Shown piece by piece: positions 26,965-48,575 of a stretch of DNA of 64,000 nucleotides. Location: positions 4,789-68,788 of the forward strand of contig CAVTHS010000011.1 in NCBI GenBank assembly GCA_963734535.1. The letters are read 5' to 3'. Source of the stretch: an uncultured Chloroflexia bacterium. GTDB taxonomy: Bacteria; Chloroflexota; Limnocylindria; Limnocylindrales; CSP1-4. The notes beneath the pieces were generated by a model. The model was not told the origin of the DNA. It saw only the letters and a program-made list of their open reading frames with translations, and did no database searches. The first letter of the stretch is position 1. Each line of letters opens with the position of its first letter. The translations under genes and the position numbers were made by a program.

Positions 26965-28338
26965 GTGAACATCGCGTCGATCGCTGCTGACCGAAGGTAC
27001 CGGCATCGCATCGTCCGCGCCACGGTCACCCTGACAGGTCGGGACGGCGAGCCGCTGCGCGGGGCGCCCGTGACCATCGGGCAACTCGGGCACGCGTTCG
27101 GCTTCGGCAACATCGGCTTCGACTTCGTCGGCCTGGCCAACGCCGAGGACGACGCGCTCGCGTCCGGCCCGTTCGGTGGGGCCTCCGCCGCCCGGGCGTC
27201 GCGTCTCGCCGACCTCTGGTTCGAGCTCTTCAACACGGCGACCCTTCCGTTCTACTGGGGCCGCTTCGAGCCTGTGCGGGGCGTCCCCGACACCCGGCGC
27301 CTGTTGCGCACCGCGCAGTGGTTCGTCGAGAAGGGCTGCACCGTGAAGGGTCATCCGCTCGTCTGGCACACGCTGGCACCGTCGTGGTTGCTGGACCTGG
27401 CGAACGGCGAGGTCACGGAGGCCGTCAGGGGACGTATCCAACGAGAGGTGACCGATTTCGCCGGGGTGATCAGCACCTGGGACGCGATCAACGAGGCCGT
27501 GATCATGCCGGTCTTCGATCGCGAGACCAACGCGATCACCCTCCTCAGCCAGCGCCTCGGCCGCGTTGGCGTGGTCCGACTGGCCGTCGAGACTGCCCGG
27601 GCGGCGAGCCCGGGCCTGACCCTTCTCATCAACGACTTCGACATGTCCCCGGCGTACGAGCGGCTTATCGGGGAGTGTCTCGAGGCGGGAGTCACCCTCG
27701 ACGGGATCGGCCTGCAGAGCCACATGCACCAGGGGTACTGGGGCGAGGCGAAGACGCTCGACGTGCTCGGCCGGTTCTCCGAGTTCGGCCTGCCGCTCCA
27801 CCTGTCCGAGACGACCCTTGTATCGGGTGAGCTGATGCCGCCCGAGATCCAGGATCTCAACGACTTCCAGGTGCCCTCCTGGCCGTCGACGCCCGAGGGC
27901 GAGGCGCGTCAGGCCGACGAGCTGGTGCGGCACTACCGGACGCTGGTGGAGCACCCCTCGGTCCGGGCCGTGACCTACTGGGGGCTGACCGATCACGGCG
28001 CCTGGCTCGGGGCGCCCTCGGGTCTCGTGCGGGCCGACGGCACGCTCAAACCGGCGTACGAGGCAATTCGGCGCCTCGTCAAGGACGAGTGGTGGCTGGC
28101 GCCGTCGACGATCGTGGCCGACGACGAGGGGCGCGTCGTCATCAACGGATTTGCCGGCACCTACGAGGTCGTGGTGGACGGATCGCGGACGGTCATCGAC
28201 CTGGGCCGCCCGGGCGTGACGGCAGAAGCGATCGACCTTCGCGACGGGGACGTCCATCGACCGCCGGGATCCCAGGAACGCGGCCCGGTGGGTTCGGATT
28301 CGCAGCCAGCGCATCCGGGAGACGACGGCGAGCGATGA
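26965..28338 (+). CDS. glycoside hydrolase family 10 (xylanase-like), no signal peptide seen
   Basis: GGGGAG SD before GTG 26965. KGHPLVWH, WDAINEAV, NDFDM, GIGLQSHM and LHLSETTL follow the GH10 catalytic Glu contexts. Confidence 0.75.
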   Translation: MNIASIAADRRYRHRIVRATVTLTGRDGEPLRGAPVTIGQLGHAFGFGNIGFDFVGLANAEDDALASGPFGGASAARASRLADLWFELFNTATLPFYWGRFEPVRGVPDTRRLLRTAQWFVEKGCTVKGHPLVWHTLAPSWLLDLANGEVTEAVRGRIQREVTDFAGVISTWDAINEAVIMPVFDRETNAITLLSQRLGRVGVVRLAVETARAASPGLTLLINDFDMSPAYERLIGECLEAGVTLDGIGLQSHMHQGYWGEAKTLDVLGRFSEFGLPLHLSETTLVSGELMPPEIQDLNDFQVPSWPSTPEGEARQADELVRHYRTLVEHPSVRAVTYWGLTDHGAWLGAPSGLVRADGTLKPAYEAIRRLVKDEWWLAPSTIVADDEGRVVINGFAGTYEVVVDGSRTVIDLGRPGVTAEAIDLRDGDVHRPPGSQERGPVGSDSQPAHPGDDGER

Positions 28339-28544
28339 GCCGTCGCCGGCCCGGCGAGCACCCGAGGGGCGTCGGGTCCGCGCCATTCCGACGTCCGTTG
28401 CCCCGTTCCGACGGCCGTCGCCCCGATTCACGGCGGACGTAGCAGGCCGGCGACCCGTCGATGCGATGTCGCTGACGTGCGTCGGCTCCCACATTTGCCT
28501 GTATCGGGGGCGCTCGGCATCAAACCAGGGGAGAGACGCGCGGG

Positions 28545-28847
28545 ATGGACAGTCTCGGAGTGCTGGCGGCGATCCTCGCCTGGCTCCTGATCCTCGGCGT
28601 GGCACTCCTGCGCATCCCCGGCGTGGGAATGCGCGCCCTCGCGGGGCCCTGGCTCGTCCTGACCGTCGTCTCGATGGGCGGTCTGTTCATGGTGTTCTTC
28701 GTGGTCTCGTACGGGCTCCTGTTCGCATTCGGGAGGGAAGCGGCCGCGGCGGGCGTGGCAGTGGCGGCCATGGTCCTCGCGGCAACGCCCGTCTTCTGGG
28801 CGCTCGTCCTCCGGCGCCGGGCACGTCGCACGGCCGCGCATGGCTGA
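28545..28847 (+). CDS. small membrane protein (3 TM)
   Basis: 100 aa with three hydrophobic helices. Its stop overlaps the start of the LuxR gene. Confidence 0.45.
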   Translation: MDSLGVLAAILAWLLILGVALLRIPGVGMRALAGPWLVLTVVSMGGLFMVFFVVSYGLLFAFGREAAAAGVAVAAMVLAATPVFWALVLRRRARRTAAHG

Positions 28848-29628
28848 TCGCATCTCGAGGAGCGCCGACGCCGTCCCGGCGGTCGCCCCCGTCCCGGCGG
28901 GCTTTGCCGGCGGTCACGTACCGACGCTCAACGTCGTCATCGCCATCACCGGATTCCCGCTGCTCGCGGCCGGGTACCGGGCCGTCATCGAGGAGGCCCC
29001 GGACCTGCGGGTCGCCGGCGCCGTGGAACGCCGCGACCGGGTGGCTGACGAGGTAGCCCGGCTCGCCCCCGACGTCGTGGTCATCGACGTGCCGACTTCG
29101 CCGCGCACAGACCGCCCGTCGGCTGGGACGATCTGGGCGATCCGGGTCGCTCGGCCTGCCGCGCGCATCCTTGCGATCGAGTCGCGGTGCGCCGGGGAAG
29201 ACCGCTCGCCGGCGACTGGGGCCGGTGCCCACGGCCTGCTGTCCCGTGAGGCCTCGCCCGGGGACGTGCTGGCGGCCCTCCGCTGTCTCGGCCGCGGCGA
29301 GACCTGGTCGAGCGCGTCGATCTCGACGGACGAGTCCCGCGCGGACGCTGCACCAGGGATGCCCGAGTTCGCCGCGGACCCCGTTCTGACCGTTCCCGGC
29401 CCCGCCGGCGACGGCGCGTTCGACAGCCTGAGCGAGCGAGCCCGCGAGGTCTTCCGCCTCGCAGCGATCGGCCATTCGAGCCTGGAGATCGCGCGGGAGC
29501 TCGGCGTCTCCGAGGATACGGTCCACGACCACCGGGGGCTGATCATGCAGCGGCTCGGCCTCCATCGACGCGTCGAGCTGTTGCGGTACGCGCTCCGCCA
29601 CGGCATCGTCCGGGCGACAGAGCTGTGA
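28840..29628 (+). CDS. LuxR/NarL-type transcription regulator with a degenerate receiver domain
   Basis: C-terminal HTH LSERAREVFRLAAIGHSSLEIARELGVSEDTVHDHRGLIMQRLGL. The receiver-like N-domain lacks the acidic DD pair (VVIAITGFPLL) but keeps DVVVIDVP. GTGA overlap with the next gene. Confidence 0.75.
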   Translation: MADRISRSADAVPAVAPVPAGFAGGHVPTLNVVIAITGFPLLAAGYRAVIEEAPDLRVAGAVERRDRVADEVARLAPDVVVIDVPTSPRTDRPSAGTIWAIRVARPAARILAIESRCAGEDRSPATGAGAHGLLSREASPGDVLAALRCLGRGETWSSASISTDESRADAAPGMPEFAADPVLTVPGPAGDGAFDSLSERAREVFRLAAIGHSSLEIARELGVSEDTVHDHRGLIMQRLGLHRRVELLRYALRHGIVRATEL

Positions 29629-30329
29629 GCCGCGTCCGCCGTGCCCTCGGCGGCGGTCGGACCGCCGCTCTCCGGTCCAGGCTTCGCCGCCTCCGGCCGT
29701 CGAGCCGGGCCGGCGTCGTAAGCGGGATGGTCGCCGGCGCAGCTCTCATCGCCGGACTGGCCGTCGTGCTCGTGGTGCTCGGTGCGGCGTTCTCGACCTT
29801 CTACGCGGAGTACGGGTTCCACCCGCAGGAGAATGCCCGCAGCTGGGCCGCCCTGACGCCGGCATACGCCGACTCGACGCTCTGCGAGCGGTGCCACGAG
29901 CCGGAGTACGCCCACTGGGTCGTATCCAGACACGAGGCCGTCGTCTGCGAGAGCTGCCACGGCCCGCTTCGCGCCCATGCCGCCGAAACCTCGCCGGATG
30001 CCCCGGCCGGCTCCGTCATCCTCGCCAGAGTTCCAGACGGGATCTGCGCGACGTGCCATGCGCAGGTGACCGGCCGGCCGCTCGCGTTCCCCCAGGTGGA
30101 GCTGGCCGCTCACTATGCGGGAGCCTCCTGCCTGTGGTGCCATGACCCTCACGACGCGAAGGCGCTGCGTCCACCCGACATCCCGCATTCGCTCGACCGG
30201 CTTCCAGCGTGCGTGACCTGCCACGTGCCCGGTGGCCTCAAGCCCGTCCCGGCCGGGCACGTCGAATCGAGCGACGCCGTCTGCCGGACGTGCCACTCGC
30301 GGCCCGCCGCGATCGTGGGCCGGCCATGA
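29625..30329 (+). CDS. membrane-anchored hexahaem c-type cytochrome
   Basis: One N-terminal TM helix and six CxxCH motifs (CERCH, CESCH, CATCH, CLWCH, CVTCH, CRTCH). ATGA overlap with the next gene. Confidence 0.85.
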   Translation: MSRVRRALGGGRTAALRSRLRRLRPSSRAGVVSGMVAGAALIAGLAVVLVVLGAAFSTFYAEYGFHPQENARSWAALTPAYADSTLCERCHEPEYAHWVVSRHEAVVCESCHGPLRAHAAETSPDAPAGSVILARVPDGICATCHAQVTGRPLAFPQVELAAHYAGASCLWCHDPHDAKALRPPDIPHSLDRLPACVTCHVPGGLKPVPAGHVESSDAVCRTCHSRPAAIVGRP

Positions 30330-31192
30330 GGAAGACGATGAATGCCGACTCGACCGACGCCGGGCGGGGATCGACGACGCTGTCGCGCCGGCGCGTCCTG
30401 CAGCTCGGCCTCGCCGCCGTGCCCGCCGTGTGCGGGGCGCAGCTCCTCGGGAGCGGGCTCGCGCAGACCACCGACGTGGCCCGCGCCGCGGTGCCGAACC
30501 CGGCCGGTGGGTCGTATGACCCGTCCGCCCATGACTGGGCCTTCGTGATGGACACGACCACCTGCATCGGGTGCGGTCGCTGCGTGGAAGCCTGCAAGCA
30601 GGAGAACCACGTCCCGCCCGAACCCGAGCTCAACCGGACGTGGGTGGAGCTGCATGTCCAGGCGGACGACTGGACCGTCTCCGTGAGCTCGCCCCAGGGC
30701 GGCGGGCACGGCGTGCCTTCCGAGGAGGCTGTCCCGGCCGCGGCCGGGGCGGTGCGGAATGCCTACTTCGTGCCCCGGCTGTGCATGCAGTGCGAGAACC
30801 CGCCGTGCACCTGGGTCTGCCCGGTCAGCGCCACCTACCGGACCGAGGATGGGATCATCCTGGTGGACGAGACGCGCTGCATCGGCTGCGGCTACTGCCT
30901 GATCGCCTGTCCGTACGGCGCCCGGTACATGGTCCCGGCGGGCGACACCACGCCGAAGGGCGTGCCCGGGATCGCGGACAAGTGCACCTTCTGCTACCAC
31001 CGCATCACCCGCGGGCTGCTGCCGGCCTGCGCCGAGGTCTGTCCCGTCAACGCCAGGATCTTCGGCGACCGCAACGACCCGGTGAGCCCGGTGAGCGTGG
31101 CCCTCGACCAGAAGCGCGTCCGGGCCATGAAGACCGCCCTCGGGACGCGGCCGCGCGTCTTCTACACGGGCCTCGAAGGCGAGGTGGACTGA
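30326..31192 (+). CDS. Tat-exported 4x[4Fe-4S] ferredoxin-type subunit (NrfC/PsrB/DmsB family)
   Basis: Twin-arginine signal SRRRVLQLG. Four Cys clusters: CIGCGRCVEAC, CMQCENPPCTWVCP, CIGCGYCLIACP and CTFCYHRI...CAEVCP. Confidence 0.9.
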   Translation: MRKTMNADSTDAGRGSTTLSRRRVLQLGLAAVPAVCGAQLLGSGLAQTTDVARAAVPNPAGGSYDPSAHDWAFVMDTTTCIGCGRCVEACKQENHVPPEPELNRTWVELHVQADDWTVSVSSPQGGGHGVPSEEAVPAAAGAVRNAYFVPRLCMQCENPPCTWVCPVSATYRTEDGIILVDETRCIGCGYCLIACPYGARYMVPAGDTTPKGVPGIADKCTFCYHRITRGLLPACAEVCPVNARIFGDRNDPVSPVSVALDQKRVRAMKTALGTRPRVFYTGLEGEVD

Positions 31193-32568
31193 TGTCGGTC
31201 CGCATGGCCGGCAGGGACCTGAGCGCCGACCCGCGGGTGCTCGCATCCGGGCTGCGCCGTGCGATCGGTGCCATGCCGCGGCCGCTGCGAGCGTGGTACG
31301 GCCTGCTCATCCTGCTCTGCCTGGTCGGGGCCGTCGGGGCCGCCCTGAGCATCCCGCCGGGCTGGGAGGTGCTGGGCACGAGTCCCTCCTTCGAGTGGGG
31401 GATCCTCATCGCAGCCTATGTCTTCTTCGCGATCACCACGAGCGGGCTCTGCCTCGCGTCGTCGCTGGGCACAGTGTTCGGGATCGAGATGTTCATCCCG
31501 CTCGAGAAGCGCCATGCGATCCTGGCCCTGCTCTGCCTCGTGACCGCCTTCGGGATCATCGCGCTCGATCTCCACTTCCCGGTCCGGATGGTCTTTGGGG
31601 CGGTCCTGAGCCCCTCGCTCCGATCGCCCATGTGGTGGATGGGCGTGTTCTACGGCGCCTACCTCGTGTTCCTCGTCATCGAGGTGGCGAGCATGTTCAC
31701 GGGGCGCTGGCGGATCCACCGGGTCGCCTGCGTCCTCTCCTCGATCACCGCGATCGTCGCGCCGACCACTCTCGGCGCGGTCTTCGGGGTCCTTGCGTCC
31801 CGCCCCTACTGGCACGGCGCGTTCACGCCCCCGGCGATGGTGTCGGCGGCGCTGCTCTCCGGCACGGCGCTCCTCGGGATCGTCTTCTACGGCGTTCACC
31901 GGTTCCGCCTCGCGGGCTACGAGCGGGCCGAGCGGCTCGCGATCCCCGCGATCCGGCTCCTGCTCACGATCACGCTCGCCGTGACGGTGCTCCTCGTCGG
32001 CTGGCAGATCGCGTGGGGGCTCTACGGGGACGTCCCGGGCCTGTCCGACGCGACCGCTGCGATCCTCGTCGGGCCCCTGGCGCTGCCGTTCTGGGTTCTC
32101 CGGATCCTGCTGGGCCTCGCGGTGCCGCTCATCCTCCTGGTGCTCCCCCGGACGCGGACGCCCGCGGGACTCGCCGCCGCCGCCGGCCTGGCCATGGTCG
32201 GGCTCTTCGCCGACCGGGGGATCTTCGTGTTCGCGGGCCAGGTCGTGCCGAGCACGGCGGTAGCGGGCGTGAAATCCTCCCCCTTCGCGCCGTACGTGCC
32301 GTCGCTCGTCGAAGTCAGCGTCGTCGTCGGGGCGCTCGCGGCGCTCGTGCTGGCCTATACGCTCGCCGAGCGCTGCCTGCCGATGGGCGAGCACTCAGGG
32401 CACGCCACCGGCGCGTTCCTCGGCTCCGCTGACGGTGCGGGAGTCGTTGACGCGAGGCCCGCCACGCCGGTCCCGTCCGCGCCGATCATCTCCGCGGCTC
32501 CGGTCGCCTCGCCGACGCCCGCCTTCGCCCCGGTCGCCCTGCATGACGGCACCGGAGCGGTGCTGTGA
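31192..32568 (+). CDS. NrfD/PsrC-family integral membrane quinone-interacting subunit
   Basis: About 10 TM helices with NrfD-like spacing. The ATG overlaps the upstream TGA (TGATG). It has a ~70-aa Ala/Pro-rich C-terminal tail. Confidence 0.85.
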   Translation: MSVRMAGRDLSADPRVLASGLRRAIGAMPRPLRAWYGLLILLCLVGAVGAALSIPPGWEVLGTSPSFEWGILIAAYVFFAITTSGLCLASSLGTVFGIEMFIPLEKRHAILALLCLVTAFGIIALDLHFPVRMVFGAVLSPSLRSPMWWMGVFYGAYLVFLVIEVASMFTGRWRIHRVACVLSSITAIVAPTTLGAVFGVLASRPYWHGAFTPPAMVSAALLSGTALLGIVFYGVHRFRLAGYERAERLAIPAIRLLLTITLAVTVLLVGWQIAWGLYGDVPGLSDATAAILVGPLALPFWVLRILLGLAVPLILLVLPRTRTPAGLAAAAGLAMVGLFADRGIFVFAGQVVPSTAVAGVKSSPFAPYVPSLVEVSVVVGALAALVLAYTLAERCLPMGEHSGHATGAFLGSADGAGVVDARPATPVPSAPIISAAPVASPTPAFAPVALHDGTGAVL

Positions 32569-33461
32569 GGGCGCTCCGAAGGCGCGGCGTCGTCCTCGCG
32601 GTCGTCGGCGTCGTCGCCGCGGTGGCCATCGGTGCGGCAGCGGGCGTCGGAATCGTCAACTCGAGGCTGATCGACTCCCTTGTCGCCGGCGTGCCTGTCG
32701 TGGCCCCCGCGCCGGGTACGGCATCGTCCGCGCCGGGTGCCACCTCCGGCCCCGGCTCGACGGGACGCCCCGGCTCGACGGACGTGCCGGCCCCCGCGGT
32801 ATCCCCGGGTTCGCCGACCACCCCCGGACCCTCCGCGGCCCGCCCGGGGGCATCGCCGGCCGCACCGGCGCTCGCCCTCACGCTGGAGATGCCGGCCGGG
32901 GCCGACTGCCTCGGCTGTCATACGATGGCTGCGGGCGGCGTGGGCACCGCCACGGTGCCGCCGATCGGCCATCCCCTCGCGGGCTGGACGAGCTGCACGT
33001 CGTGCCATGCCAACGACAGCCTGGTGAGGACTGCGCCCGGCCATTCGGGCATCCACGCCGATCAATGCCTCCTCTGCCACACCGCCACGACCCCGGCCGC
33101 GGTGGACCGCCCGCACTCCGCCCGCCAGGACGTGCCCTGCCTCAGCTGCCATGGGAAGACGGCGCCGCTGCCCGACAGCATGAAGAACCGATCGGAGACG
33201 ACCTGCTGGCTGTGCCACCCGGCGTCGGCCGCGCAGGCCCCGCGCTATCCCCATCCGACGCCCGCCGACGGCATCTGCCTCGGCTGCCACAGCGCCGCCA
33301 AGCTGGGTGCGCTCCCCGCCGACCACGTCGGGCGAACGAACAGCCAGTGCTCCGCCTGCCATGCCCCGGACTCGAAGCCGGCGCCCACCGCGCCCCACGA
33401 CCTGGCCTCGCGCGCCGGGATGTGCGCCTTCTGCCACCTCGCGGGGAAGCCGAGCGACTAG
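32565..33461 (+). CDS. membrane-anchored octahaem c-type cytochrome
   Basis: GTGA overlap with nrfD-like stop, an N-terminal TM helix and a Pro/Ser/Thr/Gly linker. Eight CxxCH motifs (CLGCH, CTSCH, CLLCH, CLSCH, CWLCH, CLGCH, CSACH, CAFCH). Confidence 0.85.
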   Translation: MRALRRRGVVLAVVGVVAAVAIGAAAGVGIVNSRLIDSLVAGVPVVAPAPGTASSAPGATSGPGSTGRPGSTDVPAPAVSPGSPTTPGPSAARPGASPAAPALALTLEMPAGADCLGCHTMAAGGVGTATVPPIGHPLAGWTSCTSCHANDSLVRTAPGHSGIHADQCLLCHTATTPAAVDRPHSARQDVPCLSCHGKTAPLPDSMKNRSETTCWLCHPASAAQAPRYPHPTPADGICLGCHSAAKLGALPADHVGRTNSQCSACHAPDSKPAPTAPHDLASRAGMCAFCHLAGKPSD

Positions 33462-33922
33462 ATCCGCGAGGGTCACGGCCGCCGAGCGGACCGGCGTGGC
33501 CGCGGGCCGCCAGCCCGATCGGCGGTCAACGACGTCGATGAACCCGCGGGAGTTGGTCAGCACAGCCCGAATGGGGCCTCCCACCCGCGGTTCGAGCGGA
33601 ATCGCACGTGAAGTCAACACCCCGGGGCGGCGCGCGCCCTCAAGCCGCGGCGCCGGCCGCGCGGCGGACCAGCGGCGCGAGCTCCGCGGTCCGGCTGAGC
33701 ACGAGCTCGACCCGCGACGTCGAGGCGGGCTCCTGTGGAAAGGGTCCCCGAGCGGCGGCTGCCCTCAAGACGTCAGTCCGGCGACTCGCGTGTTCAGATC
33801 ACGTGCGATTCTGCAGGTCTGCGGGAAGACAGGCGTGCCACGATCGCCGGAGACGGGCCCGCCACGACCGCCGAAGCTCGGCCCGCCCCGAGGCCCGCCG
33901 CGGGCCCCGCGGGCCCCGGCCA

Positions 33923-34594
33923 TTACAGGTCGGCGACGTCGATGATCCCGCGTCGGATCGCGTACTTGAGCAGCTCCACCCGGTCGTGGAAGCCGAGCTT
34001 CTCCATGACATTCGCCCTGTAGTTGTGAATCGTCTGTTCCGCCAGGTGGAGCGTCAGGGCGATCTCCCGATTGGTGTGGCCGATCGCGGCGAGCAGCATG
34101 ACCTCGCGCTCCCGGTCATTCAGGCTCTCGTACGGGTCCGCGAGGATCCCTTGCGGCGCCTTGAGGACGTACGTGTTGACCATCCTCGTCACGATCGCAG
34201 GGCTGACGTATGTCTGGCCGCGCGCCACGGAGCGCAGGGCCGTGACGACGTCGGCTGGCTCCGCCTCGCGCGTGATGAAACCATCCGCGCCCGCCTTGAG
34301 GGCGAGCGAGAACTGCTCGGAGCTGCCCCGGCACTCGAGCGCGAGGATCTTCGTGGCCGGCCGGGCCGCGCGGATCGACTCGATCGACTCGAACGACGTG
34401 CATCCGGCGCGGTCGAACGGGAGGCACTCGGCGATGACGACGTCGGCGACCGTGCGCGCGATCTCGTCGCGAAGGGCCTCGCGGCCGCCGACCTCGCCGA
34501 TCACCTTCATGTCGGGCTCGGCGTCGACCACCTCGCGGAGCCCAACGTTGAGCATCGGGAACTCGAAGATGGCCAGGAGGACGCCCAGCTTCAT
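33923..34594 (-). CDS. LuxR/NarL-type regulator with a degenerate receiver (phospho-acceptor Asp replaced)
   Basis: HTH LNDREREVMLLAAIGHTNREIALTLHLAEQTIHNYRANVMEKLG. In the receiver, VLLAIFEFPML replaces LIVDDHP and DVVIAECLP replaces DxxLLDLxMP. It is a paralogue of the 28840 gene. An alternative ATG lies at 34630. Confidence 0.8.
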   Translation of the reverse strand: MKLGVLLAIFEFPMLNVGLREVVDAEPDMKVIGEVGGREALRDEIARTVADVVIAECLPFDRAGCTSFESIESIRAARPATKILALECRGSSEQFSLALKAGADGFITREAEPADVVTALRSVARGQTYVSPAIVTRMVNTYVLKAPQGILADPYESLNDREREVMLLAAIGHTNREIALTLHLAEQTIHNYRANVMEKLGFHDRVELLKYAIRRGIIDVADL

Positions 34595-34635
34595 CCCGTT
34601 CCCCGGTCCATGCCCGTCCGTTCGCACCATGCGGA

Positions 34636-35205
34636 TCAGCCCTTCGGGAGGTCGGTTGGCGTGCCGGGAACGCCGTTCCCGCCGAACGTCGCGTCGACCT
34701 CGGCCCGGATCTCGGCCAGGGAGCGGCCCTCCCCGATCCGCTGCTTGGCGAGGAGCGCGGTCTGGACGCATACGTCGCAGAAGGAGGCGTGCTGCTCGAA
34801 CGCGACCGCCCCGGCCGTCATCCGTGCTCGCAGGAAGCAGTCCAGGTTGCTGCGGTGCTGCATCGACGCGCAGCCGCAGTAGCAGGGCATCCAGCGGATC
34901 ACATCCGGCCGCTCGAGCGCGTAGCGATACGCTTCCTGGACCCGTGCGTCCGCCCCGCGCACGTAGTCGGGCCGCGCCGCCCAGGCGGTCTCGACGGCTG
35001 CCGCATCGGTGCCCGGATCTCGCGAGGCAGCGCCGGGCATCTCCGTCGCCGATGCGACCGAGGCGCCCATCGTCGGCATGACCGTCGCGTTCGCACCCCC
35101 GCCGCACGCGGCCACCAGGCCACCCGATAGGGCTAGGACGAGGACGGCCAGCGTACCGGTGATCGCCCGACGACGGTGCGACCGGGCTGTAGCGGGGACG
35201 CGCAT
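34636..35205 (-). CDS. PCYCGC-motif lipoprotein
   Basis: MRVPATARSHRRRAITGTLAVLVLALSGGLVAACGG is a lipoprotein signal, followed by RWMPCYCGCASMQHRSNLDCF and FCDVC Cys motifs. Confidence 0.7.
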   Translation of the reverse strand: MRVPATARSHRRRAITGTLAVLVLALSGGLVAACGGGANATVMPTMGASVASATEMPGAASRDPGTDAAAVETAWAARPDYVRGADARVQEAYRYALERPDVIRWMPCYCGCASMQHRSNLDCFLRARMTAGAVAFEQHASFCDVCVQTALLAKQRIGEGRSLAEIRAEVDATFGGNGVPGTPTDLPKG

Positions 35206-35228
35206 GGTGAGCTCCTTCCCTCGGATCG

Positions 35229-36932
35229 TCATGGGACGGCTCCGGTGGGTGGACGATCGGCGGGCAAGGTCGCGACGGTGGGCGGACGGTCGGCGGGCAG
35301 GGCCGCGACCAGCGGCCAGCTGATCCCCTCGACGATGGCGCCCTCGGGCTGGGTGATGAACGGCGCGGTGACCGGAAGCACCTTCTCCGCGTGGCAGCGG
35401 GCGCAGTAGACCGGCTGGTGACAGTAGGCGCAGGCCCCGTTGCCCTGGTCGCGGATCACCTGGGCGTGGTTGGTCATCATCGTGTCGTGCTTCACGGTCA
35501 CGGCGCCGGTCTTGTGGCAGTTGACGCAGTAGTCGCGAGCGTGACATCCACCGCACGACTGGCCGCCCGGGTCCACCGACGTCGCCACGCTCCGATGGGT
35601 GAAGACGTACAGGGGGTCGGCGTGGGTCGATGGCGGCTGGCCGAGCGGCAGGCTGGCGATTGCCGTCCCGATCTGGGGGAACGTGTGGCACGTGTCGCAG
35701 GTGGAGGGGATGACCTCATTCGTGATCGTGCCGTCCTTCACCAGGAAGTGGCCGCCGTCGTGGCAGCGGAAGCAGCCGGGGAAGTCCAGGTGGCCGAGGT
35801 TGTCCGGGTAGGAGGCTGCCGTCACCTTCATGTCGGGCGTGGCCGCGAGGCGGTAGAGGAGCTTGATCTGGGCGACTGCCTGGCCGATCGCCGTCGCCCG
35901 GGTCGCGGCGACATCCGGGTAGTTGAGCGAGTAGAAGCTCGCGAGCTTGTCCGCCTCCGCGTCGGCGGTCGGCACGTCGGGGAACGCGGACCAGAGAATT
36001 CGCATCGCCTCCCGCTTGATGAACGGGAGCGTCGGGTCGATCTGGCCGGAGACGAGCTTCGCGTCCGTGCTCAGGCCAGGGTTCGGAATCGGGTGGCCCA
36101 CCCGGTTGTGACACGTGATGCAGTCCATCTTCCGGTTCGGCTCGGTGGCCTTGATCTTCGCGATGTCGGGCCTGACGTCCTCCGCGACGCCCACCTTGTC
36201 CTGGGCGATGAACTCCTCGACCGTCCCGTCGGAACGCGTCACGGCGACGTAGTCGATCTTCTGGGCGTTCGCGGAGGGGGCCCGGAACTGGACGTCGGAG
36301 AGCACGTGCCAGTGCACGCTGCGCCTCACGTCCGCGACGTCCCCCGAGCCGGGCCGGATCATGAGCCCGACGAACTGGCGCGTGTTCGCCTGGTCCTCGG
36401 TGAACGTGGTCCGCGTCACGAGGTTGACGGTCGCCAGCCGCTCGAGCGAGTGACAGCGCAGGCACGTGTCGGCGACCGGAGGAAGGTCGGAGTGGTCCGG
36501 AGGCGGCACGGGCTTCGGATAGAGGCCCGTGATCACCTGGATCAGCTGCTTCGTGCCGTTGAGCTTGGCCTTGATCCAGCCCTCGACGCCCGGCTCCACG
36601 TGGCACTCGCCGCAGGTGACGTCCCGATGCGGGCCCGCGTCGTACGCCGCGAGCTCGGGCCCCATCTGGTGGCAGCGCCCGCAGAAGCTCGCAGTCTCCG
36701 TCCACTGGATGAGCGTGACGCCCGTCCAGACGGCAGCGAACCCGAGAGCGCCGAACACCAGGAGCAGCGCGAAGATGCCCGTCCGCGAGCGCGGAACCCG
36801 CAGCCGCGGAAGGCGGCGGCGCCGACGAGCCGGCTCCTCGGCCGCGGGAGTGGTCGCCCGAGCCGTCTCCGGCGGCATGTCGGACGGCATGGCCGGACCG
36901 CCGCCTTGGGCGTGCGTTCCGGGCTCGCTCAT
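35229..36932 (-). CDS. NapC/NirT(NrfH)-type membrane-anchored multihaem cytochrome, ten CxxCH
   Basis: An N-terminal TM helix followed by SFCGRCH...TCGECH...KLNG...CLRCH, the NapC/NirT quinol-dehydrogenase layout. Seven further CxxCH follow (CITCH, CFRCH, CDTCH, CGGCH, CVNCH, CAYCH, CARCH). Confidence 0.85.
   Translation of the reverse strand: MSEPGTHAQGGGPAMPSDMPPETARATTPAAEEPARRRRRLPRLRVPRSRTGIFALLLVFGALGFAAVWTGVTLIQWTETASFCGRCHQMGPELAAYDAGPHRDVTCGECHVEPGVEGWIKAKLNGTKQLIQVITGLYPKPVPPPDHSDLPPVADTCLRCHSLERLATVNLVTRTTFTEDQANTRQFVGLMIRPGSGDVADVRRSVHWHVLSDVQFRAPSANAQKIDYVAVTRSDGTVEEFIAQDKVGVAEDVRPDIAKIKATEPNRKMDCITCHNRVGHPIPNPGLSTDAKLVSGQIDPTLPFIKREAMRILWSAFPDVPTADAEADKLASFYSLNYPDVAATRATAIGQAVAQIKLLYRLAATPDMKVTAASYPDNLGHLDFPGCFRCHDGGHFLVKDGTITNEVIPSTCDTCHTFPQIGTAIASLPLGQPPSTHADPLYVFTHRSVATSVDPGGQSCGGCHARDYCVNCHKTGAVTVKHDTMMTNHAQVIRDQGNGACAYCHQPVYCARCHAEKVLPVTAPFITQPEGAIVEGISWPLVAALPADRPPTVATLPADRPPTGAVP
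35244..35309. repeat. 2 x 33-bp imperfect tandem repeat encoding the C-terminal ATLPADRPPT duplication of the decahaem
   Basis: GGTGGGTGGACGATCGGCGGGCAAGGTCGCGAC is followed directly by GGTGGGCGGACGGTCGGCGGGCAGGGCCGCGAC. Confidence 0.8.
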
Positions 36933-36945
36933 CGGGTGGACCTCG

Positions 36946-37545
36946 TCAGCCCTTGACGAGCTGCTGCACCAGCTGCTCCATGTCGCCCGGCGAGAGCCGG
37001 CCGATGCGCACGTCGCGAATCAGGCCGTCACGCCCGATGAAGAAGTGGATCGGGATGCCGTAGGTTCGGTAGAGGTCGGCGATCCGGCCGGACGGGTCCG
37101 CGACCATCGGGAAGGTGAAGCCGACCCGCTTCGCGTAGTCCTGGACGGCGGCCAGGTCCTCCTGGATGAAGACGCCGAGCACCGCCAGCCCCTGCGGCTT
37201 GTACTTCGCGTACGTGGCCTCGAGGTCGGTTGCCTCGGCGCGGCAGTCAGGGCACCAGCTGGCGCCGAAGGTCAGCCAGGTGGGCTGACCCTTGAGCGCG
37301 GCAATGGAGACCGCCGAGCCGTCGAGGGCAGTCGCCTGGAAGTCGGGCGGCAGGTTGCCCGCGCGCGGGGGCGAGCCGGCCGCCGCTCCTCCCGGCACGA
37401 GGGTCACCCCGTCGTCTGCGGGCTTGTCGACGACCCAGGCCACGACCCCGACGAGTGTCGCCGTCACGGCCAGGACGAGGAGGGTCCGCAGGCGGCCCGC
37501 GGCCAGACCGACCGGCCGCGACGCCGGGATCTGGATCACATCCAT
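36946..37545 (-). CDS. resA: membrane-anchored thioredoxin-like thiol:disulfide oxidoreductase (ResA/TlpA family)
   Basis: TM anchor and active site FGASWCPDCRAE, within a cytochrome c maturation gene context. Confidence 0.85.
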   Translation of the reverse strand: MDVIQIPASRPVGLAAGRLRTLLVLAVTATLVGVVAWVVDKPADDGVTLVPGGAAAGSPPRAGNLPPDFQATALDGSAVSIAALKGQPTWLTFGASWCPDCRAEATDLEATYAKYKPQGLAVLGVFIQEDLAAVQDYAKRVGFTFPMVADPSGRIADLYRTYGIPIHFFIGRDGLIRDVRIGRLSPGDMEQLVQQLVKG

Positions 37546-37574
37546 GGCCGTCTCCGTTCGTCAGCCGGCCCGGC

Positions 37575-38459
37575 TCAGGCCAGGCCGCTGTAGCTGTGAA
37601 GCCCGCCGAAGAAGAGATTGCCGAAGTAGGTGAGGAGCGTGGCGCCGAAGCCGACCAGGAGCAGGAGGGCCGCCTTGTTGCCGCGCCACCCGCGGACCAC
37701 CCGGGCGTGGAGGTAGGCACCGTAGATGAGCCACGTCACGAGCGATGCGGTCTCCTTCGGGTCCCAGCTCCAGTACGTGCCCCATGCGGTGTCGGCCCAG
37801 ACGGCGCCGAGGACCACGGTGAGGGTCAGGAAGGGGAAGCCGATGACGATCGCGCGATAGCCGATCTCGTCGAGCACTCCGGGCTTCGGCAGGCCCCAGC
37901 GGCCGGTCGCCGGCTGAATCAGGTAGAGGAGCGCCGCGGCGAACGCGATCGTGAACGAGCCGTAGGCGACGATGGCGGTCGCGACGTGAACGGTGAGGAG
38001 CATGTTGTTCTGGAGCGCGGGGATCAGCGGCTCGATGCTCGCCGGGACGGTCGCGGCGTAGGCCAGCAGCGCGAGCGCGACGGGGAGGGCCAGGAGGCCC
38101 AGGATGCGCTGGTGGTATTTCCGCTCGAACCAGTAGTAGGCGCACAGGATCCCGAAGGCGAAGGCGATCGAGAACTCGTACATGTTGGAGAACGGGCCGT
38201 GGCCTGTGGCGATCGTCCGGAAGACCAGGCTCGCCGCGATGGCGAAGACGCTCAGCCCGCCCAGGAGGGTCGCGTAGTGCCCGATGGAGGCGGTCCGGGG
38301 CCCCGACGTGAAGCCGATCCCCCCGGTCGTCATCGGGACGCCCGCGGCGGCCATCCGGGCGGCCCGGACACCCGAAAGGGCATAGAGGACATAGCCGGCG
38401 AGGGCGAGGAACGTGCTCAGCGTCCCTGCGACGAAGGCGTATTCGGCGAGCTTTCCCAT
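37575..38459 (-). CDS. ccsA: cytochrome c biogenesis protein CcsB/ResC (haem-handling, WWD domain)
   Basis: Trp-rich motif WADTAWGTYWSWDPKETASL and multiple TM helices. ATG at 38459. Confidence 0.9.
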   Translation of the reverse strand: MGKLAEYAFVAGTLSTFLALAGYVLYALSGVRAARMAAAGVPMTTGGIGFTSGPRTASIGHYATLLGGLSVFAIAASLVFRTIATGHGPFSNMYEFSIAFAFGILCAYYWFERKYHQRILGLLALPVALALLAYAATVPASIEPLIPALQNNMLLTVHVATAIVAYGSFTIAFAAALLYLIQPATGRWGLPKPGVLDEIGYRAIVIGFPFLTLTVVLGAVWADTAWGTYWSWDPKETASLVTWLIYGAYLHARVVRGWRGNKAALLLLVGFGATLLTYFGNLFFGGLHSYSGLA

Positions 38460-38472
38460 GGTGCGGCGCTCC

Positions 38473-39990
38473 TCAGCTGCGCGCCGGGCCCGTGACGGCC
38501 TGGCGGATGTCCGTGACGAGAGACGTGAACTCGGCGTCGAGGTCGCTGTCCCGGCGGCCGACCGCCGCGACGGAGAGCGAGCTGCCGCCGTCGGGCCGCG
38601 GTGCGAGCTGGCCCCAGATCCGGCGATAGGGGACGAAGAGGCGGACCATGAACCCCACGACCAGGAGGAGGCAGCCCAGCCACACGATCGGCGTCCCCGG
38701 ATCCTTGGCGACATTGAGGCCCGTGTACTTGGTCTCGCGGTCGAACGTGTATGTCAGGCCCTCGATCGTCGTCGGCGTGCCCTGGTCAATCGACTTCTGG
38801 ACGATCGGGTTGCCGGTGTCGGAGGCGTACAGCTCGATCGCCACCTGGCCGGGCTTGACGCTCGGGTCGTCGGGACCAGTGGTGGCAACCACCCAGACCG
38901 CGATGTTCTGGCCCGGGAGGGAGAACGTGCCGACCTTGTTGCCCCCGTTGTTCGAGGTCCAGGCGAGCGGCACGCCCGCGGAGTAGAGCGTCGCGCCCTT
39001 CGCGTCCTTCACGGTCACGACCGCGGCCGGCCCGAAGAACGCCTGGTAGAACGAGACGTCGCCGTAGCGCAACGGCTCGTTGACCCGGACCTGCTGCTGG
39101 GCCACGGTCCGGCCGTCGCGGGTGAGGACCACGTCGCTCACGTAGTCGGACGGAGCCCCGGTGTCCGGGTAGTACGTGTCCTTGAAGGAGTTGAGCGTGA
39201 TGGAAAGGCCCGGCTCCGTTGGCACGGCCGACGTGGCGCCCTCCGCGAGCATGAACTGCGAGTCGCGGAAGCCCCACATGGAGCCGACCATCGCCCCAGC
39301 CAGGATGACCACGATGCTGAAGTGGCCTGCGATCCCGGCCCACGGCTGCCAGCGGTTGCGGTCGGCGTAGATGCGGACCGTTCCGTCGTCCTGGGCGACC
39401 GTCCGGTAGTGGCGGCGCTTGAGGACCTGCTCCGTCGCGGCGAGGACGTCGGCCGGGGCGCGGTGGAAGGTCATCTGCTCGTGCTGCGGCGCATGCTCGA
39501 AGAACGTCGGGCCCACGTTCACGTGCGGCTTCGTCATGGTCCGCCACGTGCCCGGGATGCGGTGGAGCGTGCAGGCGATCGTGGAGGCGGCGAGGAGCGC
39601 GCCGATGGCCCGCAGCCAGACCGACTGGAAGATCGTGAAGAACTGGAGCTGGTCCAGGACTCCGGTCCATCCGCCGTACTTCGGGCGGACCTCCGCGAGC
39701 CAGCCGGCCCGCGCCTGCGGGTCGTCGGCGACGCCTGCGGGCATCTGGATCAGGAGCGTGCCGACGAGCCCAAAGGCCGCGAAGGCGAGGATCAGGAGCA
39801 GCCCGAACTTCATCGAGGTGAGCAGACCCCAGAGACGGTCCAGCGCCGAGTCGAGGGCGCCGGTCCGGCCGGTCGCGGCGATGGTCGGCAGCCCGTCGGC
39901 AGGCAGCGCGCCGGTCAGGGCCGGCACGGCGGCAGCCCCGGACGGCAGGGTGCCGGCCGCAAGGTTCTGGGTTCTCGTCGTGTGTGCCAT
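38473..39990 (-). CDS. resB: cytochrome c biogenesis protein ResB/Ccs1
   Basis: LTSMKFGLLLILAFAAFGLVGTLI-type N-terminus, a large extracytoplasmic loop and a C-terminal KDPGTPIVWLGCLLLVVG helix. Confidence 0.9.
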   Translation of the reverse strand: MAHTTRTQNLAAGTLPSGAAAVPALTGALPADGLPTIAATGRTGALDSALDRLWGLLTSMKFGLLLILAFAAFGLVGTLLIQMPAGVADDPQARAGWLAEVRPKYGGWTGVLDQLQFFTIFQSVWLRAIGALLAASTIACTLHRIPGTWRTMTKPHVNVGPTFFEHAPQHEQMTFHRAPADVLAATEQVLKRRHYRTVAQDDGTVRIYADRNRWQPWAGIAGHFSIVVILAGAMVGSMWGFRDSQFMLAEGATSAVPTEPGLSITLNSFKDTYYPDTGAPSDYVSDVVLTRDGRTVAQQQVRVNEPLRYGDVSFYQAFFGPAAVVTVKDAKGATLYSAGVPLAWTSNNGGNKVGTFSLPGQNIAVWVVATTGPDDPSVKPGQVAIELYASDTGNPIVQKSIDQGTPTTIEGLTYTFDRETKYTGLNVAKDPGTPIVWLGCLLLVVGFMVRLFVPYRRIWGQLAPRPDGGSSLSVAAVGRRDSDLDAEFTSLVTDIRQAVTGPARS

Positions 39991-40003
39991 TCGTGCGCCT
40001 CCG

Positions 40004-40882
40004 TCAGCCGCCGAGCGGCGCTGTCAACGCCGCGAGACGCGCGAGCAGGTTGGTGACCATGAGAACGCCGAGGCCGATGAGCATCGCCCCGCTCACGAGC
40101 GAGACGACGCGGTGGTGGTGTCCAACCCAGCCGAGCCGGCGGGCGACCCACGTCGCGCCCATCGCGACGGCCAGGAACGGCACGGCGAGCCCGGCCGCAT
40201 AGGCGAGGAGGAGCACGGTGCCCTGGGCCACGCTCCCGGTGGTGGAGGCGAGGCCGATGATCCCGCCGAGGATCGGGCCGATGCAGGGGCTCCAGCCCGC
40301 GGCGAAGACGACCCCGAAGAGGAGCGACCGGCCGTAGCCGGGACCGCGCAGGCGCACGCCCGCGCCGGGTCCGCCGCCGAGCGTCAGCGTGCCACCACCG
40401 GGCAGGGCGCCGCTCGTCATCGTGCCGGCGCCGGCCATGGCGCGGCTCGCGATCGTGTCGCCGGCACCACTCATGCCGCCGCCCGCCAGGCCGCCGCCCG
40501 CCATGGCGCCACCGGCCAGGGCGCCGCCGAAGGCGGGCATCGGGCGGGTGTCGCGCCACAGCGCCCGGAGGTTGATCACGCCCGCGACCTGGAGGCCCAG
40601 GACGATGAGGACGGCCCCGCCGATCTGGCGGAGGTACTTCGCGTTGTCCGCCAGGGCGTATCCAATCGCGCCGATCGATGCCCAGAAGGCGACGAAGACG
40701 AGCGTGAAGCCGGTCACGAACGCGAGGCCGTGGACGAGGCTCCGCCGGCGGTCCGCCGCTCCCGTGGCGCCAACCATGTACCCGATGTAGGCCGGCACGA
40801 GCGGCAGGCAGCACGGCGAGGCGAAGGAGACCACGCCTCCGAGGAATGCGACGAGGAGGCCGATCCCGGCCCCGACGGTCAT
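40004..40882 (-). CDS. ccdA: CcdA/DsbD-family cytochrome c biogenesis thiol transporter with a Gly/Ala/Met-rich insertion
   Basis: SFASPCCLPLVPAYIGY and FAAGWSPCIGPILGGI are the two conserved Cys motifs. A ~70-aa low-complexity loop lies between them. Confidence 0.85.
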   Translation of the reverse strand: MTVGAGIGLLVAFLGGVVSFASPCCLPLVPAYIGYMVGATGAADRRRSLVHGLAFVTGFTLVFVAFWASIGAIGYALADNAKYLRQIGGAVLIVLGLQVAGVINLRALWRDTRPMPAFGGALAGGAMAGGGLAGGGMSGAGDTIASRAMAGAGTMTSGALPGGGTLTLGGGPGAGVRLRGPGYGRSLLFGVVFAAGWSPCIGPILGGIIGLASTTGSVAQGTVLLLAYAAGLAVPFLAVAMGATWVARRLGWVGHHHRVVSLVSGAMLIGLGVLMVTNLLARLAALTAPLGG

Positions 40883-42180
40883 GGCCTGGCGCTCGATGAC
40901 GGCGCGGCGCTCGACGCAGGCGCGGTCGATGGCGCGGACGATCCCGCGCTCGCGGCGGGGGAGCCGGCCGGCGCCGCGCTCGCGAGGGCGTCGAGGTGCG
41001 CCTTCACGGTCGTGGCGATATCGCTGTCCGGGGCGAGCGCGACGACGCGCGACCACTCGCGCTGGACCCCGACCATGTCGGCCGGCTGGCGGTTCAGGTA
41101 GAGGAAGCCCAGGTCGTAGTGCGCCTCGACGTTCTTCTCGTCGAGCGTCAGGACCTGTTTCCACGCTGTCTCGGCCGTGGTGGCGTCACCCAGGTTGAAG
41201 GCCGTCGCGCCGAGGGCCAGGAAGCCGCGCACGTTGGTCGGCTCGATCGCCGTGACCTTCGAGTACCAGTCGCCAGCGGTCTTGTAGTCGCCGGTCCTGT
41301 AGTACTCGTCGCCGAGCGCCATCAGCGAGTCGGCGTCCTCCGCGTTCGCCTGGATCTTGACCATCAGCGCGGCCACGGCCGCCTGGTCGAGGACCGGCGC
41401 GCTCGCGGCGGCGCTCGGTGCCGGGCTTCCGCCCGCGCCGATGACGGACGCGCTCGTGCCGCCCGCGTTGAAGCCCATCACGACCACGATCCCGATGGCG
41501 GCCACGGTGGCGCCGACGATGGCCAGGTTCCGGAAGGCAGCCGACCCGATGATTCCCAGGAGCTTGCCCGGGCGGGAGGTGGTCCCGGTTCTGGCAGCGG
41601 TCGACGCGGCGCGCTCCGCGGCGGTCCCGACGATCTCCCGGTGCGCGGTCGGATCCACCTCGGCCAGGAGGGCGTCGATCTCGTCGTCGCTGACGATGCG
41701 TCGGCCGGTCTCGTCGACGAGCACCGCCGCGGTCGCTGCCGCCGCGGCTGCCGGGGTCGCGTTTGTTGCCGCCGCGGCCGAGGCCGCGAGCACGGCCGTG
41801 TCCTTAGCCGCGCCCGCCGCTCGCCCCGTCGCGGCAGAGGGTGCCGCGACGGGGGTCGGCGCGAGGGTTTCCCGGCGAGCCGGAGGTGTCGCCGGCTCGC
41901 CGGGCAGGACGGCCGGTCGCGCGCCCGCCCCGACAAGGGCGACGGCACGGGAGAGCGCGGCCGGGTCCGTGAGAAGTGCGTACGCCTCGTCGGCACCGGA
42001 GGCCTGGACGCGTGCCCAGGCCCGCAGGCTGCGCGGCGCCGCCGCGAGATACGCGGAGACCGTCTCGTGGGCGGTGCTCACGTCCTCGGGCGTGGCGGAC
42101 GGGTCGAGCCCGAGGCGTGACAGGAGCTCGCGCTCCAGCTTCTCCGGGCCCCTGGGAGTGGTGCTGCCCGGGCCGCTCAT
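40879..42180 (-). CDS. membrane-anchored TPR protein (CcmH/NrfG-like C-terminal domain)
   Basis: A central TM helix (LAIVGATVAAIGIVVVMGF) and C-terminal TPR repeats (DSLMALGDEYYRTGDYKTAGDWYSKV...). The stop overlaps the ccdA start (ATGA). The start is taken at ATG 42180. Confidence 0.65.
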   Translation of the reverse strand: MSGPGSTTPRGPEKLERELLSRLGLDPSATPEDVSTAHETVSAYLAAAPRSLRAWARVQASGADEAYALLTDPAALSRAVALVGAGARPAVLPGEPATPPARRETLAPTPVAAPSAATGRAAGAAKDTAVLAASAAAATNATPAAAAAATAAVLVDETGRRIVSDDEIDALLAEVDPTAHREIVGTAAERAASTAARTGTTSRPGKLLGIIGSAAFRNLAIVGATVAAIGIVVVMGFNAGGTSASVIGAGGSPAPSAAASAPVLDQAAVAALMVKIQANAEDADSLMALGDEYYRTGDYKTAGDWYSKVTAIEPTNVRGFLALGATAFNLGDATTAETAWKQVLTLDEKNVEAHYDLGFLYLNRQPADMVGVQREWSRVVALAPDSDIATTVKAHLDALASAAPAGSPAASAGSSAPSTAPASSAAPSSSARP

Positions 42181-42402: not shown

Positions 42403-42441
42403 GGGGAAAGGCGACGGGCCATTCGCCGGGCGCCGTTGGGC

Positions 42442-48574: not shown

Positions 48575-48575
48575 G

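Follow-up and report, generated by a model that had tools for sequence, protein, structure and literature searches.

A conserved hexahaem–NrfC–NrfD gene set in Limnocylindria that probably encodes a distinct quinone:cytochrome complex

Limnocylindria (Ellin6529) are abundant uncultured bacteria of soil and freshwater, and their respiratory chains are poorly known. In this study, we examine a gene array of one such bacterium, located in a stretch of 64 kb (contig CAVTHS010000011.1, positions 4,789 to 68,788; about 71% GC) that is referred to throughout as the window. The array brings together a LuxR-type regulator, a hexahaem cytochrome c, an NrfC-like ferredoxin subunit, an NrfD-like membrane subunit and an octahaem cytochrome c. 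Existing annotations label genes of this set only 'hypothetical protein', 'HybB-like' or 'molybdoenzyme membrane anchor'. The set is conserved throughout the class and probably encodes a distinct quinone:cytochrome complex. The features of the locus are as follows.

28545–28847, plus strand: small membrane protein of 100 amino acids (aa); an open reading frame (ORF) with three predicted transmembrane (TM) helices and no Pfam family.
28840–29628, plus strand: LuxR/NarL-type regulator of 262 aa, here called LuxR1; GerE helix-turn-helix, 57 bits.
29625–30329, plus strand: membrane-anchored hexahaem cytochrome c of 234 aa; six CxxCH motifs and one N-terminal TM helix.
30326–31192, plus strand: NrfC-like ferredoxin subunit of 288 aa; Fer4_11, 76 bits, with a twin-arginine translocation (Tat) motif.
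31192–32568, plus strand: NrfD-like integral membrane subunit of 458 aa; Pfam NrfD, 85 bits.
32565–33461, plus strand: membrane-anchored octahaem cytochrome c of 298 aa; eight CxxCH motifs and an N-terminal TM helix.
33479–33525, plus strand: GC-rich hairpin; an inverted repeat with 18-nt arms, 83% complementary, and an 11-nt loop.
33923–34612, minus strand: second LuxR-type regulator, LuxR2; GerE, 62 bits, and a sub-threshold Response_reg match of 23 bits.

An initial annotation of this DNA had described five genes joined by four overlapping junctions, and all four can be read directly from the sequence. GTGA at 29625–29628 combines the stop codon of LuxR1 with the GTG start of the hexahaem gene, ATGA at 30326–30329 joins the hexahaem gene to the NrfC-like gene, TGATG at 31190–31194 joins the latter to the NrfD-like gene, and GTGA at 32565–32568 leads into the octahaem gene. 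The array is longer than first noted, with a sixth gene at 28545–28847 whose stop overlaps the LuxR1 ATG by 8 nt (ATGGCTGA). The GC content at third codon positions of the operon genes is 0.85–0.94. The hairpin begins 18 nt past the octahaem stop, is not followed by a T-run, and is a possible transcript end. A terminator scan of positions 28200–34000 returned a single weak minus-strand match, within chance expectation, and a consensus promoter scan of the same interval returned none; both scans are uninformative in DNA of 71% GC. The six genes are probably co-transcribed, presumably as a single transcript, and translationally coupled. The overlaps point to an operon and are not unusual in themselves, because operons of this genome commonly have such junctions (ATGA, for example, also joins the nearby NapC-type and PCYCGC genes), as does Escherichia coli nrfBCD.

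That the arrangement is more than chance follows from its conservation in relatives. In a collection with one genome per species, 183 related loci were found, nearly all from Chloroflexota/Ca. Limnocylindria; 80 related loci, nearly all from Limnocylindria metagenome-assembled genomes (MAGs), were fetched and provide the counts of synteny and overlap given here. The NrfC-like and NrfD-like genes are kept in 80/80 loci, and the order hexahaem–NrfC–NrfD–cytochrome holds in all 80 wherever the contig extends far enough. Most loci have a LuxR gene upstream, accompanied in closer relatives by the small TM gene, and usually a further LuxR paralogue downstream of the cluster. The 4-nt overlap between LuxR and hexahaem genes recurs in 51/56 loci, so that the placement of a regulator inside the coupled array, remarked on in the initial annotation, is both real and conserved. 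The NrfD gene and the downstream cytochrome gene share a 4-nt overlap in 59/78 loci and other overlaps in seven more; the hexahaem and NrfC genes overlap in 43/75, and NrfC and NrfD in 37/81, the remainder of the latter mostly showing gaps of 0–6 nt. A Shine-Dalgarno (SD)-like motif precedes the NrfD gene in 69/79 loci and the hexahaem gene in only 15/70, and the conserved context at the hexahaem start is CTGTGA. Synthesis of the hexahaem protein is likely tied to translation of LuxR1, because the gene usually lacks an SD of its own and its GTG overlaps the LuxR1 stop; the SD pattern would fit coupling of the hexahaem to the regulator by termination and reinitiation.

The NrfC-like subunit carries the Tat signal SRRRVLQ and the four cubane motifs attributed to it at first reading. 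Sixteen of its 17 cysteines fall in these motifs, predicting four [4Fe-4S] clusters; among homologues the 16 cysteines are conserved in at least 90% of aligned sequences, together with an SRRxxL Tat motif. The cysteine groups and the signal for export to the outer face are those of a four-cluster NrfC/PsrB-type ferredoxin, and the closest solved chain is PsrB (2vpw_B, E 4e-45). All matches to NCBIfam models lie below their cut-offs: DsrO 183 bits (cut-off 200), TtrB 169, NrfC 143 (378), QrcC 107 (400) and HmcB 101 (420). Assignment to the Dsr system from the DsrO score was considered and rejected, as iron–sulfur (FeS) subunits of unrelated molybdopterin operons score the same or higher and the DsrP score of the NrfD-like protein is far below its cut-off.

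The NrfD-like subunit belongs to the NrfD/PsrC superfamily (PF03916; 85.4 bits against a gathering cut-off of 25.8, covering positions 2–311 of 313), and its start is conserved among homologues. An AlphaFold2 model (predicted local distance difference test, pLDDT, 79; predicted TM-score, pTM, 0.80) shows an N-terminal hairpin and an amphipathic helix followed by ten TM helices and a disordered, cytoplasmic, Pro/Ala-rich tail at 396–458, in line with the ten or so helices and long tail first proposed. A Foldseek search with this model ranked ActC of four alternative complex III (ACIII) structures first (TM-score 0.68–0.72), followed by ActF (0.53–0.58) and then by the eight-helix PsrC (0.44/0.75). 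As modelled, the fold is that of the subgroup with ten TM helices, built of two four-helix bundles and two further helices, that comprises ActC, DsrP, QrcD, HmcC and HybB. Searches of PDB chains by sequence, with the protein singly or as a 14-sequence profile, returned no chain, ActC included, and the classification therefore rests on fold and hidden Markov model (HMM) scores. The protein falls below the threshold of every curated family tested: DsrP gave 42 bits (cut-off 350), QrcD 22 (cut-off 570) and HmcC no match, HmcC appearing only among more distant relatives. Alignment with hhalign to E. coli NrfD and HybB detected remote similarity only. Interaction with quinone, with no redox cofactor of its own, is predicted from the superfamily, and the protein has conserved polar residues.

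Searched against 1.84 billion cluster representatives, a profile of the NrfD-like family matched only 1,619 proteins at E ≤ 1e-3, with 175 of them reaching E ≤ 1e-30; hundreds of close homologues occur in metagenomes. From the small number of profile matches, the family is therefore a small, distinct branch of the NrfD superfamily. As a side observation, the variable tail ends in a conserved DGxGG-like motif (window positions 32540–32568, and relatives), and the DNA encoding it coincides with a GGAG/GGNGG SD-like stretch for the overlapping start of the downstream cytochrome.

The best-scoring outgroup of the NrfD-like family consists of P0253 and its relatives, at about 37% identity and 308 bits to the family profile, from Desulfuribacillus, Salisediminibacterium, Anaerobacillus, Desulfuromonas and Desulfurivibrio. 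In Desulfuribacillus and the last two of these genera the NrfD gene follows genes for a molybdopterin subunit of 732–734 aa and an FeS subunit of 183–189 aa; Salisediminibacterium has the FeS and NrfD genes only. The molybdopterin subunits of Desulfuribacillus and Desulfuromonas, the two that were scanned, are PhsA-like, at 386–556 bits against a cut-off of 694. Tight clustering of the NrfC–NrfD pair with a catalytic family, which the initial annotation named as counting against its reading, is partly borne out: the nearest outside relatives do anchor PhsA/PsrA-like molybdopterin enzymes, but at only about 37% identity, and the gene for such an enzyme lies beside none of the 80 loci.

These relatives raise the question of whether the pair is an orphan Psr/Phs-like BC anchor, whose molybdopterin subunit is encoded elsewhere in the genome and for which the cytochromes act as accessory carriers. 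The proposal draws on the MoA–FeS–NrfD operons and PhsA-like subunits just described. It is opposed by gene content, as a molybdopterin gene is found beside 0/80 loci and no molybdopterin-subunit ORF occurs in the 64-kb window, where the three ORFs longer than 880 aa encode an ABC transporter, a DUF6812 protein and a multihaem protein; the lack of a molybdopterin partner first reported for the FeS subunit thus extends to the whole window. It is also opposed by the Tat signal that the NrfC-like protein carries for itself, as the FeS subunits of the molybdopterin operons, in which no Tat motif was searched for, are too short at 183–189 aa for a long N-terminal leader like that of the NrfC-like protein. 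We regard an orphan anchor as highly improbable. The comparison would instead suggest that cytochromes have replaced the molybdopterin subunit of a Psr/Phs-type BC pair and that the NrfC-like protein has acquired a Tat signal.

Both cytochromes have the N-terminal TM anchor described for them initially, as borne out by TM prediction. In the hexahaem protein, a basic N-terminus leads into a single TM helix, which a short linker connects to six CxxCH motifs; six motifs are present in 64/72 homologues. An N-terminal basic RxRP region is also conserved among these homologues, which supports the GTG start. Six further histidines are conserved besides those of the CxxCH motifs, implying that all of its haems would have bis-histidine (bis-His) ligation. 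Pfam matches are to Cytochrome_C7 and Paired_CXXCH, with none to Cytochrom_NNT. The AlphaFold model of the protein is poor (pLDDT 69, pTM 0.46) and found no Foldseek match below E 0.5, and no conclusion on likeness to ActA, NrfB or c7 was drawn from it. Sequence matches of the two cytochromes in the PDB are marginal: ActA at E 0.004 (hexahaem; 8k9e_A), MtrC at 3e-4 and NrfB at 0.013. In the octahaem protein, the Pro/Ser/Thr/Gly stalk noted at first is an 82-residue linker composed to 74% of Pro/Ser/Thr/Gly/Ala; it is combined with eight CxxCH motifs spaced at about 24 residues per haem. The protein is weakly homologous to the hexahaem (BLASTP E 2e-6). Its homologues carry eight (24 loci), seven (12 loci) or five (38 loci) haems, always with the TM helix and a linker rich in Pro/Ser/Thr/Gly/Ala, and what is conserved is a pentahaem core, along with three histidines and one methionine outside the motifs.

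Multihaem cytochromes beside an NrfC–NrfD pair also recall catalytic systems, since an octahaem with NrfCD resembles MccACD/SirACD and NrfB with NrfCD resembles Nrf (PMC8076601), and a weak NrfB-like Pfam match could be read in the same direction. One of the cytochromes would then itself be the enzyme, a nitrite, sulfite or hydroxylamine reductase of the Nrf, Mcc or Otr type. Neither cytochrome, however, contains a CxxCK or a CX15CH motif; both are tiny, at about 24–28 residues per haem; the conserved histidines and the one methionine are enough to ligate the haems; and the scores against the NrfC and NrfD models are far below cut-off. A catalytic role of this kind is scarcely credible.

The 14 haems counted on the two cytochromes are present in this lineage but are not general, as relatives carry 11 to 14. 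Likewise, the bracketing of the NrfC–NrfD core by two cytochromes, which the initial annotation made its central feature, exists here but is a lineage elaboration of a conserved core of hexahaem–NrfC–NrfD. The comparison of loci indicates that this core is the invariant unit, to which the stalked cytochrome and the regulator are additions. The core also occurs in other Chloroflexota beyond Limnocylindria. The complete Dehalococcoidales genome at locus L087 (CP070842.1, 4135–9440) has a small TM ORF followed by hexahaem, NrfC and NrfD, adjoining System I ccm genes and a 15-haem protein. In the Chloroflexi MAG at locus L088 (JACQUK010000008.1, 1200–10109), a small TM ORF, a canonical response regulator, an uncalled hexahaem, NrfC and NrfD come first. 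Next is a 9-haem protein in which collagen-like repeats are combined with CarboxypepD_reg and PKD domains, and after it come a 10-haem protein and a second NrfC–NrfD pair. One further Chloroflexota contig carries hexahaem–NrfC–NrfD alone.

Two observations stand beside this survey. The 15-haem protein of L087 (376 aa, 15 CxxCH) has the same 'LPxxHxGR...CxxCH' repeat as the octahaem of the window. At locus L081 (8001–10226), which has no upstream LuxR gene, NrfC and NrfD are called as one fused protein of 741 aa (P0117) with 63% identity to the NrfD-like protein of the window. The fusion is either genuine or a long-read frameshift; if genuine, it would support a fixed NrfCD pair.

The small TM protein at the head of the array has no Pfam match. 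A homologue occupies the same position in 37 loci, and one is found in L081 at 68 bits; L087 and L088 have small TM ORFs at the equivalent position, without detectable homology (E 0.2–0.3). It could be an extra subunit, comparable to NhcD or ActD, or a partner of the regulator.

The likeness to Cbc, ACIII and Qrc quinol:cytochrome oxidoreductases put forward in the initial annotation is apt, given the ActC-like model of the NrfD-like subunit and the architecture of Cbc4. In Geobacter sulfurreducens, Cbc4 (CbcS–CbcT–CbcU) is a proposed menaquinol:cytochrome oxidoreductase that feeds extracellular electron transfer, and like the operon it combines an anchored multihaem cytochrome with an unstructured linker, a four-[4Fe-4S] protein and a membrane subunit without cofactor (10.1101/2025.04.14.648717). 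Both lack a molybdopterin subunit, and the match is architectural only. CbcS is a NapC/NirT-type tetrahaem, whereas the partner here is a hexahaem without a Cytochrom_NNT match; unlike Cbc4, the operon also has a second stalked cytochrome of five to eight haems, a small TM protein, a regulator within the operon and a presumably monoderm Chloroflexota host. Complexes in which a multihaem cytochrome stands in place of the molybdopterin subunit have been described in MBNT15 and Melioribacter, where the same interpretation was proposed, and the operon matches them in this replacement (PMC9386147).

NrfCD modules further occur in Nrf, Nhc, Qrc, ACIII and Mcc (PMC8076601, PMC6303296). With NhcABCD, HmcABCDEF and QrcABCD of Desulfovibrio the operon shares a multihaem cytochrome, an NrfC-type FeS protein and an NrfD-type protein of ten TM helices, and those systems sometimes include a small extra membrane subunit (PMC8076601, PMC6303296). 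Hmc and Nhc, however, use a soluble cytochrome of 9 or 16 haems, in contrast to the TM-anchored cytochromes of six and eight haems that flank the module here. The scores for HmcB (101/420) and HmcC (no match) fail to place the operon with Hmc. QrcB is absent, and the QrcC (107/400) and QrcD (22/570) scores are low. For DsrMKJOP, DsrO reaches 183/200 and DsrP 42/350, with no DsrMK nearby. NrfC of NrfABCD reaches 143/378, and neither a TIGR03148 match nor a CxxCK haem was found. The layout resembles E. coli NrfBCD in having a small multihaem cytochrome gene directly upstream of the NrfC and NrfD genes, with 4-nt overlaps, but E. coli NrfD has eight TM helices and aligns over its second half only (hhalign E 2e-5), and the operon has no NrfA. 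The PhsABC/PsrABC-like molybdopterin operons contain the nearest outside NrfD relatives, and their FeS subunits give the same pattern of HMM scores; they differ in the adjacent molybdopterin subunit of 732–734 aa and the short FeS subunit, as against the NrfC-like protein with its own Tat signal.

ACIII (ActABCDEF) shares with the operon the ActC fold with ten TM helices, a TM-anchored multihaem subunit and an outward-facing FeS module. It differs in that the operon lacks a molybdopterin-like ActB1, the NrfC-like protein being 288 aa with Fer4 domains only, as well as ActF, ActD and the monohaem ActE; each cluster among the 80 loci has a single NrfD gene, and the identity between ActC and the NrfD-like protein is only 14–16%. 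The resemblance nevertheless suggests that the operon might be a minimal analogue of ACIII or bc1, a core respiratory complex and not a module for extracellular transfer. Electrons from menaquinol would then travel by way of the tethered cytochromes and reach either a haem-copper oxidase or reductases on the periplasmic side (NirK, NosZ). Besides the closeness of the model to ActC, the pentahaem core and TM anchor of the downstream cytochrome are like those of ActA, its one conserved methionine could give a haem of higher potential, and the hexahaem itself has the weak sequence match to ActA (8k9e_A) given above. The cluster is also widespread in the class (the 183 genome loci), and cytochrome c oxidases have been reported from nearly every member of the lineage (10.1101/2021.08.23.457424). 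On the other hand, no oxidase family was seen among the recurrent flanking clusters of the 80 loci, which were read by eye and not scanned; the core is also present in a Dehalococcoidales genome and beside very large multihaem proteins of surface type; and a dedicated regulator suggests conditional expression. We consider a minimal ACIII analogue unlikely, though it is a rival to be taken seriously.

Judged by the features that define those systems, the operon belongs to none of ACIII, Qrc, Dsr, Nrf and Hmc/Nhc. The type of complex is already known and the variant found here is undescribed; our literature search found no paper describing the cluster in Limnocylindria or Chloroflexota.

The reading that we prefer, with a probability of roughly 0.6, is that the operon encodes a respiratory complex of the NrfCD 'dimeric redox module' type, in which multihaem cytochromes take the place of the molybdopterin subunit and which likely acts as a menaquinol:cytochrome oxidoreductase. 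The Tat motif of the NrfC-like protein itself, as opposed to the short FeS subunits that accompany a molybdopterin subunit in the nearest relatives, counts in its favour. Its steps are drawn from the families to which the subunits belong. Menaquinol would be oxidised near the outer face of the ten-helix NrfD-like subunit, the four [4Fe-4S] clusters of the Tat-exported NrfC-like protein would receive its electrons, and the next carrier would be the membrane-proximal, all-bis-His hexahaem, the putative invariant partner of NrfCD. The hexahaem may then feed the octahaem, a wire on a flexible Pro/Ala/Ser/Gly stalk, which would deliver electrons to extracytoplasmic acceptors, probably the large multihaem cytochromes encoded nearby, with oxidants outside the cell or on its surface as the final destination. 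The NrfD helices contain conserved charged and polar residues, which would be in keeping with coupled proton movement.

These subunits could also work in the opposite direction. The complex would then be a cytochrome:menaquinone oxidoreductase of the Qrc/Nhc/Hmc kind that reduces the quinone pool electrogenically, and its donors would lie outside the cell or in the periplasm, for example Fe(II), reduced humics or a cytochrome linked to a hydrogenase. QrcD, HmcC and HybB, which reduce quinone, do belong to the NrfD group with ten TM helices (PMC6303296), the only NCBIfam affinities of the NrfD-like protein, weak as they are, are DsrP and QrcD, and an all-bis-His hexahaem suggests low potentials. 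Against this, no donor enzyme is conserved nearby in the 80 loci, and direction is not readable from sequence. Reduction of the quinone pool is in our estimate about as unlikely as the ACIII analogue.

The extracytoplasmic end of the proposed menaquinol:cytochrome pathway is suggested by the adjacent DNA. The host lineage is inferred to be monoderm (10.1101/2021.08.23.457424), and the complex probably feeds an extracytoplasmic or extracellular electron-transfer chain, because a large multihaem-cytochrome island adjoins the operon. This island of multihaem-cytochrome and cytochrome-biogenesis genes spans about 16 kb (33923–50027), lies on the minus strand and is convergent on the operon. It encodes, in order, a TPR protein, an NHL beta-propeller, a protein with six CxxCH (491 aa), a protein of 1137 aa with seven CxxCH and one CxxxxCH, a second TPR protein, ResB, ResC, a TlpA-like thioredoxin, a NapC/NirT-type decahaem (567 aa), a PCYCGC lipoprotein and LuxR2. 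In the interval 35205–35232, the PCYCGC gene probably begins at 35232 (MTIRGKEL...), its start codon sharing an ATGA with the stop codon of the NapC-type decahaem gene; a lipobox-like LVAACGG follows the signal helix of the PCYCGC protein, and the listed ORF of 351 aa is an over-extension.

A set of ResB, ResC, TlpA and the NapC-type cytochrome occurs near the cluster in 9/80 loci. At L054 (875–9823) it lies directly upstream of the hexahaem gene in the same orientation, replacing the regulator, and at L030, L033, L074 and L075, which like L054 are distant relatives, the set, with or without PCYCGC, is immediately beside the cluster. This adjacency hints at a functional link between two quinone-facing modules. 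When the flanking genes of the 80 loci were clustered, no enzyme partner proved to be conserved alongside the core and the regulators, and no enzyme family other than this NapC/ResBC/TlpA set recurred.

Several points weigh against the proposed menaquinol:cytochrome oxidoreductase and its extracellular role. The nearest NrfD relatives serve molybdopterin enzymes. Formation of the complex, the order of the carriers, the direction of flow, proton coupling and the physiological role are all inferred, and which cytochrome docks on the NrfC-like protein is a guess, because the model of the hexahaem is poor (pLDDT 69) and has no structural match. The role in extracellular transfer depends on co-location in a minority of loci (9/80), because no gene outside the core and the two regulators is conserved across loci.

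How the operon is controlled bears on when such a complex would be used. LuxR1 has a GerE helix-turn-helix at its C-terminus, while its N-terminal domain is a degenerate pseudo-receiver in which Pfam detected no Response_reg match; among NCBIfam models LuxR1 gave partial NarL/UvrY-type matches only, far under the cut-offs. In an alignment to NarL, the acidic pair of NarL/LuxR receivers is lost and the lysine is replaced by arginine. The consensus of the regulator family has glutamate at the phospho-aspartate position and conserved cysteines (EC...GC, CRC). LuxR1 is a divergent copy, having lost most of these cysteines and gained a linker insertion, whereas its paralogue LuxR2 retains them. In most relatives LuxR2 lies directly downstream of the cytochrome gene on the same strand; in the window it comes last in the convergent cytochrome-biogenesis/multihaem operon. 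No histidine kinase recurs near the cluster across the 80 loci. We speculate that these regulators work independently of phosphorylation and possibly sense redox state or metals; LuxR1, acting in this way, would presumably control the operon.

Taken at its widest, the core with its stalked wire might be the main conduit from quinone pool to cell surface in monoderm Chloroflexota, which are abundant in soils, with the molybdopterin subunit of a Psr/Phs-like enzyme replaced by cytochromes and with expression switched by a redox-sensing LuxR protein, Cys-rich, kinase-independent and of pseudo-receiver type, that is translationally coupled to the first cytochrome. In this full form the proposal is tentative and, on balance, doubtful. 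If it were true, Limnocylindria would have an ability, so far overlooked, to respire or oxidise iron or humics, and if electrons do reach or leave the surface of a monoderm cell by this path, the complex would be a candidate route for the redox cycling of metals and humics in soil. A phosphorylation-independent regulator within the operon would offer a handle on the inducing condition. Were surface electron transfer to prove true, the gene set would also be a compact model of how NrfCD modules swap their catalytic partners.

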